DNA of 64,000 nt from an uncultured Actinomycetes bacterium (GTDB taxonomy: Bacteria > Actinomycetota > Thermoleophilia > Gaiellales > Gaiellaceae). The notes under the pieces were generated by a model. That model did no database searches. It worked only from the letters and a program-made list of their open reading frames with translations, and had not been told where the DNA came from. Shown here in pieces: positions 3,174 to 17,365 of this stretch; within the stretch, counting starts at the first letter, position 1, and each line of letters starts with the position of its first letter. The stretch lies in assembly GCA_963812695.1 (NCBI GenBank), contig CAWEWD010000006.1, positions 16,555-80,554 of the forward strand. The letters are read 5' to 3'. The translations under genes were made by a program, and so were the position numbers.

Positions 3174-3446
3174 CTAGCCGTCGAGTTGGCCGGCGATCTC
3201 CGCAATCTGAGGCCTAGTCGCGTGTCCCGCTTCTTGAAGGATCGCCGGGACCTCGGGGTCGGAGATGAAGTTCTGCCAGCCCTCGGCGTCCCAGTCGAAG
3301 AGCACCCAGATCCGGCCCTCCTCATTCGGGTCGCGAAAGACGTGCGAGCCCTTGGACCCGTGCTGTTTTCGCTTCTCGAGGCTCGTGGTTGAGAAGATAT
3401 TCATCCAACGGTCGAAATCCTCGACCTTGCTCGTTGCGAGAAACAC
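3174..3446 (-). CDS. Small conserved hypothetical protein (about 90 aa)
   Basis: In-frame GTG at 3446 preceded by GGAGGAGGAG. The longer 129-aa ORF adds an Arg/His-rich N-terminus that does not look coding. Confidence 0.55.
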   Translation of the reverse strand: MFLATSKVEDFDRWMNIFSTTSLEKRKQHGSKGSHVFRDPNEEGRIWVLFDWDAEGWQNFISDPEVPAILQEAGHATRPQIAEIAGQLDG

Positions 3447-4010: not shown

Positions 4011-4319
4011 CTAGCGCGCGGTGACGATCGCGATCACCGCGAGCACGCCGCAGACTACGATCACGCCCGCGAGGCCGGTGAAGATCGCCGCGACGATGAC
4101 CAGCGGAATCGACAGCGCCATCCCGCCGAGCACCATCTCCTTCTGGTGCTCGCGCTTGCGCCGGAGCGACTGCTCGCTCTCACGCTGCCGTTTTCCGAGC
4201 TCCTTCTCGATGCGGTCGACGAACGCCTCGATCAGCGCCGGCTCCGCTTCTTCGCCCAGCTCCTTGCGCGCCTCGATCGTCGCGCGCACCTCGTCTCGCG
4301 GTACGAGCTCTTCGCTCAT
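4011..4319 (-). CDS. Hypothetical tail-anchored membrane protein
   Basis: 102 aa. Charged helical N-terminal half and two C-terminal hydrophobic helices. 3-nt gap to the upstream ORF. Confidence 0.6.
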   Translation of the reverse strand: MSEELVPRDEVRATIEARKELGEEAEPALIEAFVDRIEKELGKRQRESEQSLRRKREHQKEMVLGGMALSIPLVIVAAIFTGLAGVIVVCGVLAVIAIVTAR

Positions 4320-11830: not shown

Positions 11831-13561
11831 CTAGCGAACTCTTTCCTTGACCTGCGCTACCCACTTCAGCGACTGCAGGTAGGCGAGTGACTTCGGTCGC
11901 CGCAGGATCTCGGCCGTCCGCAGGCTGAGCAGGAACTCGTCCGGGCCCTCGAACGCGCGCATCCGCAGGCCGCCCGTTGCGAGCCCCTGCAGGACGTGCG
12001 CGTCGGAGCCGGCGCCCATCGTCAGGTTGTACTTGCGGGCGAAGCGGAGCGCCTCGTCGTTATACGCCTCGAAGAGCAGGCGCGCGTTGTAGACCTCGAA
12101 CACGTCCACGTCGCCGAGGTTGCGGTGCAGCGTCGCCGGGTTCGGGATCGAGTGCATGCGGTCGAACGGGTGTGGGAGATAGACGAGCCCGCCCTGGGCC
12201 TTGATCGCAGCGATCGTGTCCCCGAACGACATGCCTCGTGGGATCTCCTCCTTGAGGAAGAGACCGATCACCTCGCCCTGGCCGTCGGTCTTGATCTCCT
12301 CGCCCGGGATCACGATCAGGTCGCGCCCCCGGGCGAGCTCCACGGCCTCGAGGGCGCCGCCGAAGACGTTGTGGTCGGTGACCGCGATCGCTCCGAGGCC
12401 GGTGTTCTCTGCGTGGTCGAGCAGATCTTCGACCTCGACGGAGCAGTCGGCGGACCACGACGTGTGCAGGTGCAGGTCGGCGAGGATCCAGTCCCGGTCC
12501 GCAAGCGGGTCGGGTGGCCTGGGCGTTCGCCGCCGCTTGCCGAGACTCTCGTACAGCTCCTCGAGCTCGGCGCCGACGTCGTCGAACGTCTTGCCCGCGA
12601 CTCCGCGCCTCGCCTCCTCCGAGAGCTGCTTGCGGAGCGGCTCGTTCTCGGCGAAGCGGGCAAGCGCGGCCGCTACGAGCTCGGGTTGCTCCTGCACGCC
12701 GGGGGGAGAGGCGATCGCCGCTCCGGCCGCGGCCGCCTCGAGCGAGACGCGCGACAGACCGTCGAGCGCCGGCACGAAGATTGCGGTCTCGGCCAGGATC
12801 GGCGCTCTGCTCTTCCCGTCGCGGGCCGTCCGCACGCGAGCGCGTCCGCGGAGCTTCGCCGGGACCGCGGGCCGTCCGGCCAGCTTCTTCGTGCGCAGGT
12901 AGACGAGCTCCCAGTCGGGGAGCTCGCCCAGGGCGCGCTGCACCGCCCGGGCGAGCGGGCGTTCGATTGGGCGCCACTCGAGGACGACGAGCTGCCGCTT
13001 CGTTCCCGGAGTGAAGAGCCCGGTGTCGACGCCTTCCGGGACGATCCGGTAGTCGCCGGGGAAACGCTGCGCAGCGGCGTGCGCGGCCTCGGGCGACGAC
13101 GCCACGAGCGCGTCGATCCGGGCGAGCAGCTTCTCGCGCTGCGCTTTCGCGGGCGGGTACCCGAGCCGCTCCGGCGAGAAGAAGCTCGCGACGCTCAGTG
13201 CGCGCCCATCCCGGAGAGCAAGGTACGAAAGGCTCGGCAGGCCGGGCTCGAAGCCGTGGACGACGTCGAACGCTCCGTGGGAGAGCGCTGTGGCCAGGTT
13301 GGCTCGGACGCCGACCGGCAGGCCGATCCTGCTTCGCCGCGAGATCGGCACGGCCGGACCGAGCGCGATCAGCGGCGCCTCGAGCCCGTCACGCAGCGCG
13401 CGGCGTCCCGCCGCGAGATCGGCCGCGCGATTCGAGGGCGCGAGGACGCTGACCGAGTGGCCGCGCTTCCGGAGCGCGTCGGCGATCCCCGCGACGTGCT
13501 CGTTCACGTCGTGCGGCTGAGACCACGAGAAAGGGGTCACCAGGCAGATTCGCAGGGACAC
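11831..13561 (-). CDS. GT4 glycosyltransferase (PimA-like) fused to a C-terminal PHP-domain metal phosphoesterase
   Basis: 576 aa. GT-B N-lobe MSLRICLVTPFSWSQPHDVNEHV, C-lobe SLEAAAAGAAIASPPG. PHP motifs LHLHTSWSADC, VTDHNVFGG, GSDAHV. Confidence 0.85.
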   Translation of the reverse strand: MSLRICLVTPFSWSQPHDVNEHVAGIADALRKRGHSVSVLAPSNRAADLAAGRRALRDGLEAPLIALGPAVPISRRSRIGLPVGVRANLATALSHGAFDVVHGFEPGLPSLSYLALRDGRALSVASFFSPERLGYPPAKAQREKLLARIDALVASSPEAAHAAAQRFPGDYRIVPEGVDTGLFTPGTKRQLVVLEWRPIERPLARAVQRALGELPDWELVYLRTKKLAGRPAVPAKLRGRARVRTARDGKSRAPILAETAIFVPALDGLSRVSLEAAAAGAAIASPPGVQEQPELVAAALARFAENEPLRKQLSEEARRGVAGKTFDDVGAELEELYESLGKRRRTPRPPDPLADRDWILADLHLHTSWSADCSVEVEDLLDHAENTGLGAIAVTDHNVFGGALEAVELARGRDLIVIPGEEIKTDGQGEVIGLFLKEEIPRGMSFGDTIAAIKAQGGLVYLPHPFDRMHSIPNPATLHRNLGDVDVFEVYNARLLFEAYNDEALRFARKYNLTMGAGSDAHVLQGLATGGLRMRAFEGPDEFLLSLRTAEILRRPKSLAYLQSLKWVAQVKERVR

Positions 13562-13624
13562 GACCCACCGAGTGTAGTGCGGTCGCGAGGGCCGGCCCGC
13601 ACCGGCCCCCGCGCGCTTTGCGAA

Positions 13625-15097
13625 CTAGGACTGAGCGGCCGCCTTGGCCTTCGCCTTCTTGCGTCCGTACTTCTTGATGAAGCTCTCGACGGCGTCCCGC
13701 GCCTCGTCGTCCGGGAGCTGCTTCGGCGGCGACTTCATCAGGTAGGCGCTGGGCCCTTCGAGCGCCCCGCCGACGCCGTTGTCGAGCGCCAGCTTCGCGA
13801 GCCGAACCGCGTCGATCACGATCCCGGCCGAGTTCGGCGAGTCCCACACCTCGAGCTTGAGCTCGACGTTGAGCGGCACGTCGCCGAAGGACGTGCCCTC
13901 CATGCGGATGTACGCCCACTTGCGGTCGGTCAGCCACGGCACGTAGTCGGACGGGCCGACGTGCACGTTGTCCGCGCCGAGGTCGTAGTCGAGCATCGAC
14001 GTGACCGCGTTCGTCTTCGAGATCTTCTTCGACTCGAGACGCTCACGCTCGAGCATGTTCAGGAAGTCGGAGTTCCCGCCGACGTTGAGCTGCATTGTCT
14101 TGTCGAGCTTCACGCCGCGCTCGCGGAAGAGCGTCGTCAGCACGCGGTGCGTGATCGTCGCGCCGACCTGCGACTTGATGTCGTCGCCGACGATCGGAAG
14201 CCCGCGCTCCTCGAACTGGCGCCCGAAGTAGCCGCCCTTGGCGATGAAGACGGGCATGCAGTTCACCATCGCGCAGCCCGCGTTCAGGATCTGCTCCGTG
14301 TACCACTTGGTCGCCTCCTCGGAGCCGACCGGGAGGTAGTTGACGACGACGTCCGTACCCGTCTCCTGGAGGATGTTCACGACGTCGTCCGTGTCGCCGG
14401 GCGCCTTGTCGACGATCTCGGACAGGTACTTGCCGAGCCCGTCGTGCGTCATGCCGCGCGAGACGGTGATGCCGGTCTTCGGGACGTCGGCGAACTTGAT
14501 CGTGTTGTTCGGCTTCGCCCAGATCGCGTCGGCGAGGTCCTTCCCGACCTTCGTCGTCGTGACGTCGAACGCGGCCGTGAACTCCACGTCGCGGACGTGG
14601 TAGCCGCCGAGGTCGACGTGCATGAGGCCGGGGACGAACTCATCCGGCGAGGCGTCCTTGTAGTACTCGACTCCCTGGAGGAGCGAGTTGGCGCAGTTGC
14701 CGACGCCGATGATCGCGACGCGGACCTTCTCGTTCCCACGCGTCTTGCCGTTCTGGCTGCCGTTCTTTGGCATTGGTTCCTTTCTGGGGATGGCTGCGTC
14801 GAGTCGCTCGGTGAGCGAGTCGACGACGACGGTGTTCGTGCTGCTGCTGCGCTCGCGAGCGGCGTCGTCGAGCCTGCGCTTGAGTGCGGGCGGGACGCGC
14901 AGGAGCACGTCGCCGCTCTCACCGGGCGCAGGGCCGCGCCGGCCGCTCGGCGTGAAGTCGACGTCGAACTCGTCGGCGAGGATCGCGACGGCGACATCGT
15001 TGAGAGTGCTGTCCCGGCGCGAGACCTCGCGGCCGAGCCGGCGCTTCAGGGTCTTCGGCATCCGGACGAGGATGCTGGTCTGCTCTCTCTTCGCCAT
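13625..15097 (-). CDS. ino1: myo-Inositol-1-phosphate synthase with an in-frame N-terminal tandem ribbon-helix-helix extension
   Basis: The Ino1 core starts at [38 protein letters not shown] (ATG 14773, preceded by AAAGGAA). 108 more codons run upstream with no stop. Confidence 0.85.
14774..15097 (-). other. Tandem RHH (CopG/Arc/MetJ-like) module encoded in frame with ino1
   Basis: Two repeats fit beta-helix-turn-helix: [36 protein letters not shown] and [36 protein letters not shown]. Confidence 0.6.
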
Positions 15098-15098
15098 T

Positions 15099-15125
15099 CT
15101 GCTAGCAGCGCACTGCTGCTAGCAG
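15099..15125. promoter_or_regulatory. Two perfect 10-bp palindromes CTGCTAGCAG, 17 bp apart, abutting the long ino1 start codon
   Basis: 15099-15108 and 15116-15125 are identical. A third copy, CTGCTAGCAC, lies at 15156-15165. Confidence 0.55.
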
Positions 15126-15129
15126 AGTA

Positions 15130-15711
15130 TCAACCTTGTCGGAGCTGCGAACGAACTGCTAGCACGCGCTGGACGACGGTGATCCACGCCGTCGCGGTCA
15201 GCAGGTAGATCGCCCAGGGCAGCACGCCCCAGGGAGCGAGCACGAGACCGGTCACGATCACGACCACGCGCTCGGCCCGGCTTCCGATCCCCACGTCGCC
15301 CTTCAGTCCGAGCGCCTCCGCGCGCGCGCGGGTGTAGCTGACGAGGAACGAGCCAACGACCGCCGCGAAGGCGAACGCGAGCGCCACGTCGTTCCCGTCA
15401 CGCGAGAAGACGAGCGCGATCGCTCCGAGCATGAACGCCTCGCCGATGCGGTCCGTCGTCGAGTCGAGGAACGCGCCGAACGTCGTCCCCTTGCCGCTCG
15501 ACCGAGCAAGCGCCCCGTCGAGGATGTCGAGCACCGAGCCGACGACGAAGAGCGCGGCCCCGACCCAGAAGCAGAGGATCTCGTTGCGGTACTCGAAGTA
15601 GACGACGACGCTTGCGATCGCGCAGATCGTGACGCCGGCGAACGTGAGCGCGTCGGGTGAGATCCGCGTGCGCGCGAGATGCCCCATCCCACGCGTGGCA
15701 GCACGGCGCAC
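15130..15711 (-). CDS. pgsA: CDP-alcohol phosphatidyltransferase (PIP synthase / PgsA1-like)
   Basis: Motif DILDGALARSSGKGTTFGAFLDSTTDRIGE (D-x2-DG-x2-AR...G-x3-D-x3-D). Start is GTG 15711 or ATG 15687. The longer ORF N-terminus is Arg/Gly-rich. Confidence 0.85.
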   Translation of the reverse strand: MRRAATRGMGHLARTRISPDALTFAGVTICAIASVVVYFEYRNEILCFWVGAALFVVGSVLDILDGALARSSGKGTTFGAFLDSTTDRIGEAFMLGAIALVFSRDGNDVALAFAFAAVVGSFLVSYTRARAEALGLKGDVGIGSRAERVVVIVTGLVLAPWGVLPWAIYLLTATAWITVVQRVLAVRSQLRQG

Positions 15712-15746
15712 ACCCGCCGTATACGCCTCTTTCAGGCCTCCGGCGG

Positions 15747-16505
15747 TCAGGCCGGTGCCGGGCGCACCCGCGCGACGAAGCGCCGCAGGTGCTTGTGGTT
15801 GACGACCGCGGCCGCGATGGTCGCGACGAGGATCCCCGCCACGATGTCGAGCCAGAAGTGGTTGCCGGTCGCCATCACGCAGAACCAGACCCAGAGCGGC
15901 CAGAGCAGCCAGAGCGCCTTCGCCCACTTCGAGCGGACGATGAAGAAGAGCCCGACGCCGATGATCAGCGAGTCAGCGGCGTGGAGGCTGGGCATCGCCG
16001 CGTACGGGTTCGCGTCGGCCCGGACGATCGCGCTGTTGTGGTTGATGCCGAAGTTGGCGAGCGTGTCGACGAAGCCGAGCTCCGGGAACATGCGCGGCGG
16101 AGCGGTCGGCATCAGGACGAAGCCGATCAGCCCGATCACGTTCGCGAGCAGGATCGTGTTGCGCAGCGGGACGAAGTGATCGTTGCGCCGCAGGTAGACC
16201 CAGAGCAGGACGAGCCCGAGGACCGTGAACTGCGAGTGCCAGTACGTCAGCGAGGTCGCTTCGCGCAGCACGTTCGAGGAGGCGACGAAGCTCTGGAGCG
16301 ACAACTCCCAGAGACCGGTGATGCGGTGCTCGAAGTCGGCCACGCGCAAGCCGTTCTGGAATGCCTGGAACGCGTCGCGGTCGGCGACCCCCCGCGTGTA
16401 GCGATATGCGAACAGGAAGCCGAACCAGATCGCCAGCTGGCGGATCAGGTCAAGGGGCCCGTGCGGGAGGATGCGGGCCCGAGCAGCCGTAGCGGCACTG
16501 GACAC
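15747..16505 (-). CDS. PAP2_3 (Aur1/IPC-synthase-like) membrane protein
   Basis: Multi-TM. AMPSLHAADS and GNHFWLDIVAG match the PAP2 C2/C3 motifs. GTG 16505. Confidence 0.75.
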   Translation of the reverse strand: MSSAATAARARILPHGPLDLIRQLAIWFGFLFAYRYTRGVADRDAFQAFQNGLRVADFEHRITGLWELSLQSFVASSNVLREATSLTYWHSQFTVLGLVLLWVYLRRNDHFVPLRNTILLANVIGLIGFVLMPTAPPRMFPELGFVDTLANFGINHNSAIVRADANPYAAMPSLHAADSLIIGVGLFFIVRSKWAKALWLLWPLWVWFCVMATGNHFWLDIVAGILVATIAAAVVNHKHLRRFVARVRPAPA

Positions 16506-16534
16506 GACGTTGCATTTTAGACTCAGGTGCGGGT

Positions 16535-17365
16535 GTGACGGAGTTTTCGCGGAATTCGACCGATCAGTGGAGCGAGGAGCTCCTACGTACGTCGGGGTAC
16601 GAACGAATCGGTTTTGCGGCTGGTTTCGACGCGAATCGGCCCGCGCCACCCGACGTTCTCGTCGAGATCCTGTGCCTGGAAGCGCACGTTGACAGACCGC
16701 GGCTCGTTGTCGATCTCGGGAGCGGAACCGGCCTTTCGACGAGGCTCTGGGCAGGTCGGTCCGACGAGGTCGTCGGTGTCGAGGCGAGCCCCGCGATGCG
16801 CGAGCAGGCCGAGGCTGCGACCTCGGCGGACAACGTGCGCTTCGTTCAGGCGTACGCGCAGGCGACCGGGCTCCCGGACGGCGGGGCCGACATCGTCACG
16901 TGCTCTCAGGCGCTCCACTGGATGGAGCCTGAGCCGACGTTCGCCGAGGCGGCGCGGATTCTCCGGCCGGGCGGCGTGTTCGCGGCGTACGACTACGACT
17001 GGCCGCCGATCGTGAGCTGGGAGGTCGAGGCCGCGTTCGAGGAGCTGCTGCGGCGCGTCCGGGCCGGCCGCGCGCCGGACGGCAGAGGGATGCGCTACGC
17101 GAAGGAGGGGCACCTCGAGCGGATCAAGGCGAGCGGGCACTTCAGGTACGCGCGCGAGATCGTGTTCCACTCCCGCGACCGCGCGGACGCTGCGCGAATC
17201 GTCGGCATGGCGCTCAGCCTCGGGCCGCTGACCGTGCTCCTCAACGACGGCAAGAGCGAGGAAGAGGTCGGGCTCACGGCTCTGCGCGAAGCCGCTGGGC
17301 GGACGTTGGGCGATCGCGAAGCCGAGATTTTCCTCGGCTACCGGATCAGGCTCGGCGTCCGCTAG
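16535..17365 (+). CDS. Class I SAM-dependent methyltransferase
   Basis: Motif I VVDLGSGTGLS; post-I and motif II DIVTCSQALHW; LRPGGVF. Confidence 0.85.
   Translation: MTEFSRNSTDQWSEELLRTSGYERIGFAAGFDANRPAPPDVLVEILCLEAHVDRPRLVVDLGSGTGLSTRLWAGRSDEVVGVEASPAMREQAEAATSADNVRFVQAYAQATGLPDGGADIVTCSQALHWMEPEPTFAEAARILRPGGVFAAYDYDWPPIVSWEVEAAFEELLRRVRAGRAPDGRGMRYAKEGHLERIKASGHFRYAREIVFHSRDRADAARIVGMALSLGPLTVLLNDGKSEEEVGLTALREAAGRTLGDREAEIFLGYRIRLGVR

Follow-up and report, generated by a model that had tools for sequence, protein, structure and literature searches.

The 64-kb stretch of DNA analysed here (the window, to which coordinates and strands refer unless another locus is named) comes from an uncultured Gaiellaceae bacterium and carries on its minus strand an open reading frame (ORF) of 490 amino acids, listed as starting with ATG at 15097, in which a 108-amino-acid extension is followed by a complete inositol-1-phosphate synthase, Ino1. 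The ORF is part of a cluster consisting of a PAP2-like gene, a CDP-alcohol phosphatidyltransferase gene, the ORF itself and a gene for a GT4 glycosyltransferase fused to a PHP phosphoesterase (GT4/PHP). An earlier reading of the sequence alone (the sequence-only reading) recognized two ribbon-helix-helix (RHH) units in the extension and a second start codon at its end, and proposed either a self-regulating enzyme-repressor fusion or a long and a short isoform made from one ORF. Its coordinates, sequences and frame are all reproduced here: the frame is open from 15097 to 14773 with no stop codon, and the internal ATG (14773-14771) is codon 109, preceded by AAAGGAA within the sequence AGAAAGGAACCA and the wider stretch cccAGAAAGGAAcca. 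Its remark about stop codons in the other frames carries no weight, as the DNA is too rich in G+C. The interpretation itself is supported by every computational test that was run, and its two alternatives are mutually compatible: a self-regulating fusion is backed by palindromic boxes that are conserved at the promoter of the gene itself, and a pair of isoforms by a conserved Shine-Dalgarno (SD) sequence and ATG at the junction.

The Ino1 part is a clear member of its family. The Mycobacterium tuberculosis enzyme (1GR0) aligns with it from end to end (query 14-366 to residues 13-365 of the 367-residue chain, E 3.1e-148), so that homology to a characterised enzyme spans the full length, including the NAD-binding N-terminus (GVGNC) and the catalytic domain, which is intact. 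The model TIGR03450 (mycothiol_INO1) matches with an E value of 2.6e-166 and 553 bits, a score under the equivalog cutoff of 638, and PF01658 matches with an E value of 2.2e-37. A protein started at Met109 would have 382 amino acids, close in length to 1GR0, and would begin with a canonical actinobacterial Ino1 N-terminus.

The two consecutive RHH-like units claimed for the first 108 codons are also found, with halves that are identical at 17 of 45 positions (38%; BLASTP, E 5e-08). An AlphaFold2 model of the module, built from 17 sequences, has a predicted local distance difference test (pLDDT) score of 83.9 and a predicted template modelling (pTM) score of 0.74, and passes twice through a beta-alpha-alpha arrangement: a strand at residues 7-12 with helices at 15-28 and 32-43, and a strand at 63-68 with helices at 70-82 and 87-102. 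According to DSSP these two strands are the only ones in the module model and must therefore pair with each other, predicting an antiparallel RHH ribbon that is formed within a single chain. The same module fold is obtained in a full-length model based on 30 close homologues, in which residues 102-122 are predicted to be disordered (pLDDT < 50).

Profile and structure searches point in the same direction. In the PHROG collection the RHH partition family phrog_2685 matches unit 1 (residues 4-46, E 3.5e-6), Arc-like families match unit 2 (E about 1e-5), and Arc-like repressor and ParG-like RHH partition families match both units with E values of 3e-6 to 1e-5. The best Foldseek matches in the PDB are chains E, F and G of the F-plasmid relaxosome (9f0x/9f0y; query-normalised TM-score, TMq, 0.62-0.69), followed by AvtR (4hv0), the permuted single-chain Arc (1u9p) and DndE. 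The Foldseek table names entries only, and it is by number and length that we take chains E, F and G to be three TraY molecules. The relaxosome contains three copies of F TraY, a monomer in which one polypeptide holds a whole RHH-dimer fold (PMC12117103). The RHH matches obtained by searching the PDB with the module profile (CopG, AmrZ, MazE7, VapB26 and Mnt) all have E values above 0.07. Between the units lies a connector whose residues P50, G52 and R53 are invariant in A1 and A2, and whose F48 and S51 are invariant in A2 and present in at least 90% of A1. Taken together, the module very probably has the RHH fold.

A full-length search recovers more than 120 clusters of 471-517 amino acids with 80-97% identity and 94-100% query coverage; one 491-residue homologue (P0134) carries the NCBI name 'inositol-3-phosphate synthase [Gaiellaceae bacterium]'. 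The relatives analysed at the DNA level comprise seven loci from species-representative genomes (Gaiellaceae or 'uncultured Actinomycetes' metagenome-assembled genomes, MAGs) and 54 loci from soil metagenomes, among which module identity is 50-96%. The module motif VLLR[VMI]P is present in 60 of these 61 loci (all 7 genome loci and 53 from metagenomes; L061 is without it), and in all 60 the module continues in frame into Ino1, or through the junction Met to the end of the contig. Because the same in-frame arrangement recurs in every motif-bearing locus, the feature is due neither to chance nor to a local sequencing error. By the Nei-Gojobori method applied to 524 pairs, the median ratio of nonsynonymous to synonymous substitution rates (dN/dS) amounts to 0.35 in the module, compared with 0.16 in Ino1, and the ratio for the module falls to about 0.07 in close pairs (dN 0.015 and dS 0.221 between the window and L009). 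These low values indicate that the extension is translated and under purifying selection, and the fusion is almost certainly real.

The junction between module and enzyme carries the signals of a second translation start. Whereas the linker varies among relatives in length and sequence, its SD and ATG are kept and the junction Met is invariant. In all 33 unique full-length ORFs this Met is preceded, at a distance of 5-8 nt, by GAAAGGA, GGAAGGA, GAGAGGA or AGGAGGA, and the duplexes that these sequences form with the 3' tail of 16S rRNA have energies of -7.3 to -10.3 kcal/mol (mean -8.5). The 323 other in-frame internal Met codons average -2.6 +/- 2.05 kcal/mol, and only 0.6% of them reach -7.3. 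Codon choice at the site is equally distinctive: among the 38 Arg codons found within the five codons before the junction Met there are 21 AGA, 10 CGA and 4 AGG, so that 92% are rare purine-rich codons, against about 13% overall (AGA 2.7%, CGA 7.3% and AGG 3.4%). The first ATG differs: the 15 nt in front of it are practically devoid of anti-SD complementarity (mean +0.11 kcal/mol, n = 41). The long and the short isoform are thus probably both made.

The alternative that survives best is that the module does bind the boxes, with the long form as the sole product, so that the enzyme is always tethered and the junction SD and ATG are a conserved peptide or mRNA feature. The conservation of fusion and boxes is compatible with this, as is the conservation of R-K-E/D-x-M at the junction as amino acids in most loci. 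The nucleotide sequence is, however, kept where the peptide is not: the peptide of L048 and L049 differs (GGRRSEA-M) and their DNA still reads AGGAGGA, and L050 likewise keeps an SD with differing amino acids (GGAAGGGA). This, the excess of rare Arg codons at the site, the scarcity of comparable SD energies at other internal Met codons, and a split variant (L069) in which ino1 has to start at the junction ATG make an exclusively long form improbable. In L069 (JGI Ga0613207_091818, 3301-3320) the junction reads AGA AAG TAA CCA ATG, a GAA codon having become TAA, so that a 103-residue tandem-RHH protein is followed 4 nt later by ino1. As the junction ATG is the only possible ino1 start in this locus, it follows that this codon can serve as one. 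The single G-to-T change, which may be either a genuine polymorphism or an error of sequencing, makes the SD weaker as well (AGAAAGTAA), and a junction stop occurs in L069 alone among 62 related loci (L001-L061 and L069).

With regard to the first start codon, seven of the more divergent relatives (L006, L007, L046, L053, L054, L058 and L060) have no in-frame ATG between the -10-like element and the first RHH strand, and translation of a long form would there have to begin at TTG or GTG, or on a leader that is very short or missing. Gene callers often start the proteins of divergent loci at a Met inside strand 1 and so truncate the first RHH unit, with profile positions 13-101 matching protein residues 1-89.

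The converse possibility is that only the short Ino1 matters and that the 108 codons, as a recently fused or decaying regulator or as an artefact of annotation or assembly, contribute nothing to the enzyme's function. In its favour can be cited the strong SD at the internal ATG and the lack of one at the first, the junction stop of L069, which shows that the two parts can be separate genes, and frameshifts at the locus in some long-read assemblies (L005 and L062). Against it stand the frame kept in all 60 motif-bearing loci across 50-96% identity, a module dN/dS of about 0.35 that drops to about 0.07 in close pairs, and the confident fold prediction; an unselected stop loss would not persist over such divergence. 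We consider this possibility very unlikely. The frameshifts in L005, L062 and L064, which appear to be long-read MAG assemblies, break ino1 and also neighbours such as moaA, and are probably assembly errors and not split genes. A separate RHH gene beside ino1 was also considered for the relatives and was rejected: of the short proteins recovered by searching with the module alone (P0001-P0023), nearly every one is the fusion itself, cut off at a contig end or frameshifted. The extension is in frame in relatives down to 50% identity, and L069 is the sole true case of a separate RHH gene.

Upstream of the first ATG, where the minus strand reads gtGCTAGCAgttcgttcgcagctccgacaaggtTGATACTCTGCTAGCAGcagtgcgCTGCTAGCAGaATG, lie three putative operator boxes. 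RHH proteins usually target short repeated palindromes that overlap a promoter (Schreiter and Drennan 2007, cited in PMC12117103). Boxes 2 and 3 are copies of the 10-bp perfect palindrome CTGCTAGCAG, and box 1 shares their core TGCTAGCA. The core occurs three times in the 64 kb, always between 15100 and 15164 and within 70 bp upstream of the first ATG, with 0.18 copies expected and none of 100 shuffled sequences reaching three; the window holds no further box. Box 2 overlaps the end of an extended -10-like element, TGATACTCT, which fits the pattern TGn-TAnnnT and contributes its TGA as stop codon to the upstream gene. A transcript that starts a few bases downstream of this element would begin inside box 2, which thus also covers the likely transcription start. 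Box 1 sits in the 3' end of the upstream gene, which resembles phosphatidylinositol-phosphate (PIP) synthase genes.

The boxes are kept in every related locus with enough upstream sequence. Among 35 unique group-1 loci the box cores and the GATACT element form invariant columns and the spacers vary; the core itself varies at one position only (G/T), and GATACT, GATAAT or TATAGT abuts box 2 in nearly all loci. Counted from the first RHH strand, the boxes of loci with the same synteny stand at constant offsets of about -90, -50 and -33, and in some loci further boxes follow at -129 and -168, repeating every 39-40 bp or so. In more distant loci there are two boxes with GCTAGC, GCTATC or GATAGC cores, 14-15 bp apart, beside a TATAGT/TATACT element. 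In L006, L007 and L053-L055 the boxes are present although the upstream gene is different or divergent, which indicates that they belong to the RHH-ino1 gene. Moreover, at least 29 of 35 loci write box 1 with the rare Leu codon CTA, which accounts for 0.7% of the Leu codons of RHH-Ino1 ORFs and, in the window's four cluster genes, for 1 of 153; its retention at box 1 indicates nucleotide-level selection inside a coding region. It is likely that the module binds these boxes and regulates its own gene.

Because boxes 2 and 3 are identical palindromes, RNA that spans both can form a 12-bp hairpin, with a minimum free energy (MFE) of -23.5 kcal/mol (z -2.9; none of 200 shuffles is as stable), that ends next to the first AUG. 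Such a hairpin would exist only on transcripts starting upstream of box 2, for example by read-through from the upstream gene, and on these it might bias translation towards the internal start. A scan of 13400-16800 for terminators found none. An additional perfect copy of CTGCTAGCAG is present in L006 at 4100-4112, inside the coding sequence of RHH unit 1 and about 90 nt downstream of the promoter boxes, where it encodes Leu-Leu-Ala with the rare codon CTA; it could be a downstream auxiliary operator or a chance occurrence.

The sequence family of the module extends beyond the fusions. A profile search of 1.84 billion representatives returned 536 proteins with E values of 1e-3 or lower, 184 of which reach 1e-10 or lower, and many are complete proteins of 100-126 amino acids (family range 100-150) with the tandem layout, the same F-x-PSGRR connector as the fusion module and, often, an end in PFGGGRR; Pfam barely recognises these standalone relatives. 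The sampled ones are not beside ino1, and adjoin genes for ERF recombinase, HNH proteins, AAA ATPases and transposase-like proteins together with many small ORFs, a context that looks phage- or mobile-element-like; a tblastn search of the module against 50,697 phage records gave no match. The fusions of L048/L049 and P0183 keep PFGGGRR in the linker, which suggests that a standalone tandem-RHH gene with a PFGGGRR tail lost its stop codon and so became joined to ino1, whose own SD and ATG were retained; the direction of this event we infer.

That the module is instead an antitoxin-like domain of the HicB/CopG type or a protein-interaction domain, or binds elsewhere, with the palindromes serving another regulator, would agree with HicB as the best Pfam label and with the contexts of the standalone relatives, and is the least likely of the alternatives, as PF05534 describes only the RHH DNA-binding part, no toxin gene is nearby (the neighbours of RHH-ino1 being the PIP-synthase-like and GT4/PHP genes), the palindromes travel with RHH-ino1 even beside a different upstream gene, and short repeated promoter palindromes are what RHH proteins generally recognise. 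A toxin-antitoxin reading of the HicB label was rejected on the first two of these grounds.

On balance, we think it probable that the gene encodes an autorepressing bifunctional 'trigger enzyme' of the PutA kind, built on a TraY-like single-chain RHH and made in a long and a short form. As in F TraY, a single chain would suffice for the two-stranded ribbon that otherwise takes a dimer, its two RHH units pairing with each other. The module would bind the TGCTAGCA palindromes of its own gene, which cover the -10 element, the probable start of transcription and the 5' leader. Occlusion of the -10/start region would repress transcription of ino1, and this repression probably extends to the downstream GT4/PHP gene. 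Since there is a strong SD at codon 109 and none at the first ATG, the same mRNA would yield much catalytic-only Ino1 and little of the long repressor-enzyme. Ino1 enzymes are oligomeric, and the solved homologues are tetramers; an oligomer could therefore engage several boxes, with the long subunits in it bridging phased sites (17 bp and about 40 bp apart) cooperatively. Repression would then rise with the concentration of the enzyme itself, providing negative feedback on its abundance.

These elements can be joined in a more elaborate scheme, which we regard as speculative and rather unlikely in its entirety, where the Ino1 oligomer is a scaffold on which the ratio of long to short subunits sets the valency of the repressor and ligands tune it. 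Mixed oligomers would carry zero to four modules and bridge operators of up to five boxes, as seen in some relatives; binding of glucose 6-phosphate (G6P), NAD(H) or an inositol phosphate to the catalytic domain would change the availability of the modules; and the operator hairpin may further bias the choice of start between read-through and promoter-proximal transcripts.

Several observations weigh against an autorepressing enzyme with two starts. The profile check proposed with the sequence-only reading succeeded only in part: Pfam support for RHH is marginal, with HicB PF05534 matching residues 60-93 of unit 2, and no part of unit 1, at 22.1 bits (cutoff 21, E 1.4e-4) in a scan of the module by itself but not otherwise, while RHH_1, CopG and MetJ do not rise above threshold on the module in Pfam and NCBIfam scans, in which the RHH_10, YlcI and BrnA matches are likewise all sub-threshold. 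The full-length AlphaFold2 model is poor for Ino1 (mean pLDDT 54) because of a shallow alignment, and is uninformative on contacts between the domains. A scan of 13400-16800 with the consensus sigma-70 promoter found no full -35/-10 promoter, and it is conservation that identifies the -10-like element. Box spacing differs between lineages (17-18 bp vs 14-15 bp), which may reflect a different binding geometry, and a factor other than the module could in principle be what binds the boxes. Finally, some of the conservation of SD and ATG could stem from the linker peptide (R-K-E/D-x-M) being constrained, a possibility against which L048 speaks.

Table 1. Features of the RHH-ino1 locus and its surroundings, with examples of standalone relatives of the module
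Feature	Position	Strand	Basis or remark
Long ORF: tandem RHH module, linker and Ino1	13625-15097	-	In frame in 60/60 motif-bearing relatives
RHH unit 1, residues 7-43	14969-15079	-	AlphaFold2, pLDDT 82-92; phrog_2685
Connector between units, residues 44-62, motif F-x-P-S-G-R-R	14912-14968	-	Conservation
RHH unit 2, residues 63-102	14792-14911	-	AlphaFold2; HicB PF05534; Arc-like PHROGs
Flexible linker with junction, residues 103-124	14726-14791	-	pLDDT <50 at residues 102-122
Internal SD AGAAAGGAA, encoding Arg-Lys-Glu with the rare codon AGA	14777-14785	-	Anti-SD duplex energy
Internal start Met109 of the putative short, Ino1-only isoform (382 residues, 13625-14773)	14771-14773	-	Invariant Met
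Ino1 (myo-inositol-3-phosphate synthase) catalytic region, residues 125-474	13676-14725	-	TIGR03450, PF01658, 1GR0
Putative operator box 3, perfect palindrome CTGCTAGCAG	15099-15108	.	Ends 1 nt before the first ATG
Putative operator box 2, perfect palindrome CTGCTAGCAG	15116-15125	.	17 bp centre to centre from box 3
Putative operator box 1, core TGCTAGCA at 15157-15164	15156-15165	.	40 bp upstream of box 2
Extended -10-like element TGATACTCT (TGn + TACTCT)	15124-15132	-	Conservation; abuts box 2
Potential 12-bp RNA hairpin from boxes 2 and 3	15098-15126	-	MFE -23.5 kcal/mol, z -2.9
PAP2-like protein	15747-16649	-	Weak phosphoinositol-dihydroceramide synthase match
GT4 glycosyltransferase (residues 19-180) fused to PHP/PHP_C phosphoesterase (residues 362-548)	11831-13561	-	Domain matches
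Standalone tandem-RHH examples	L063 4001-4321; L065 40-411; L066 722-1171; L067 4001-4363		

The genes around RHH-ino1 (Table 1) are those of an apparent inositol-phospholipid pathway, for which Ino1 would supply the committed precursor. The best models for the CDP-alcohol phosphatidyltransferase are those of archaetidylinositol-phosphate synthase (E 1e-41) and phosphatidylinositol-phosphate synthase (E 1e-38); in neither case does the score reach the equivalog cutoff. As listed, its ORF and that of the PAP2-like protein overlap by about 180 nt; because homologue alignments begin at residue 66 of the transferase, its true start probably lies near 15730. The order PAP2-like, PIP-synthase-like, RHH-Ino1, GT4/PHP is kept over more than 50 loci (the upstream part corresponding to 15130-16649 on the minus strand of the window), and the full-length GT4/PHP fusion occupies the same position in at least eight related loci (query 1-576 aligned). 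In such a cluster, the phosphatidylinositol-phosphate phosphatase step, to which, to our knowledge, no enzyme has been assigned in Actinobacteria, could plausibly be carried out by the PHP phosphatase.

Each component of the proposed mechanism has counterparts in known systems. The trifunctional PutA of E. coli and Salmonella is an enzyme bearing at its N-terminus an RHH domain that acts as the autogenous repressor of its own regulon (PMC5293562). PutA and RHH-Ino1 share a DNA-binding domain that is covalently fused to a metabolic enzyme; PutA, however, has one RHH unit per chain and needs dimerisation, whereas RHH-Ino1 has a tandem, single-chain RHH, and the PRODH and P5CDH domains of PutA are unrelated to Ino1. 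The switch in PutA is a proline- and redox-driven association with the membrane, and we know of no internal-start isoform of PutA. TraY and AvtR resemble the module in carrying two RHH units in one polypeptide, which forms a pseudo-dimer; several copies of them bind adjacent sites, as would those of the module. Sequence homology to them was not found, with 13-19% identity in structural alignments and neither protein recovered in the PDB sequence search, and the module, which has an F-x-PSGRR connector of its own, represents a different sequence family. TraY, a relaxosome accessory protein, and AvtR, an archaeal lipothrixvirus regulator, both lack a fused enzyme. The true sequence relatives of the module are the standalone tandem-RHH proteins, an unnamed family whose members are not fused to Ino1.

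Dedicated transcriptional control of ino1 has a precedent in Actinobacteria, where the LacI-type regulator IpsA of Corynebacterium and Mycobacterium is an inositol-responsive activator of the gene (PMC3899939). Unlike the RHH module, IpsA is a separate, unfused protein of the LacI fold that is encoded elsewhere. In Arabidopsis, MIPS1 has been reported to be both a metabolic enzyme and a transcriptional regulator acting on its own promoter (PMC3597657). MIPS1 is eukaryotic, is without a dedicated DNA-binding domain, works through chromatin (ATXR5/6) and activates, and is thus an analogy and not a homologous feature. In-frame isoform pairs that arise from internal starts are represented in bacteria by CheA-L/S, ClpB 93/79, the IF2 forms and LysC alpha/beta. 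These also have one ORF with two starts and a long form beside a C-terminal short form, but in none of them is the extra N-terminal part a transcription-factor module that controls the gene encoding it. The literature searched held nothing that combines inositol-1-phosphate synthase with an RHH domain, or with a fused DNA-binding domain and autoregulation, and nothing relevant was found for Gaiella plus inositol. The locus thus appears to bring together three known kinds of arrangement: the RHH-enzyme autorepressor, the single-chain RHH and the dual-start gene.

Public records label the 490-residue proteins simply 'inositol-3-phosphate synthase', and the DNA-binding half, together with its standalone relatives (536 clusters at E <= 1e-3), is without an adequate family model. 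As a putative single-chain operator binder with a 10-bp palindromic site, the module is a compact natural part, and operator, module and both start codons are defined to the base. If the proposed mechanism is true, RHH-Ino1 would be a second natural RHH-enzyme autorepressor beside PutA, and would differ from it in its single-chain TraY-like RHH, in being built on an essential lipid-precursor enzyme and in a second start that separates regulatory from catalytic pools. It would also show that the Gaiellaceae, a widespread and scarcely cultured soil lineage, control inositol-phospholipid synthesis without a separate IpsA. Should the scaffold scheme hold as well, the enzyme would measure both its own abundance and the metabolic state, and inositol-lipid synthesis would need no separate regulator.

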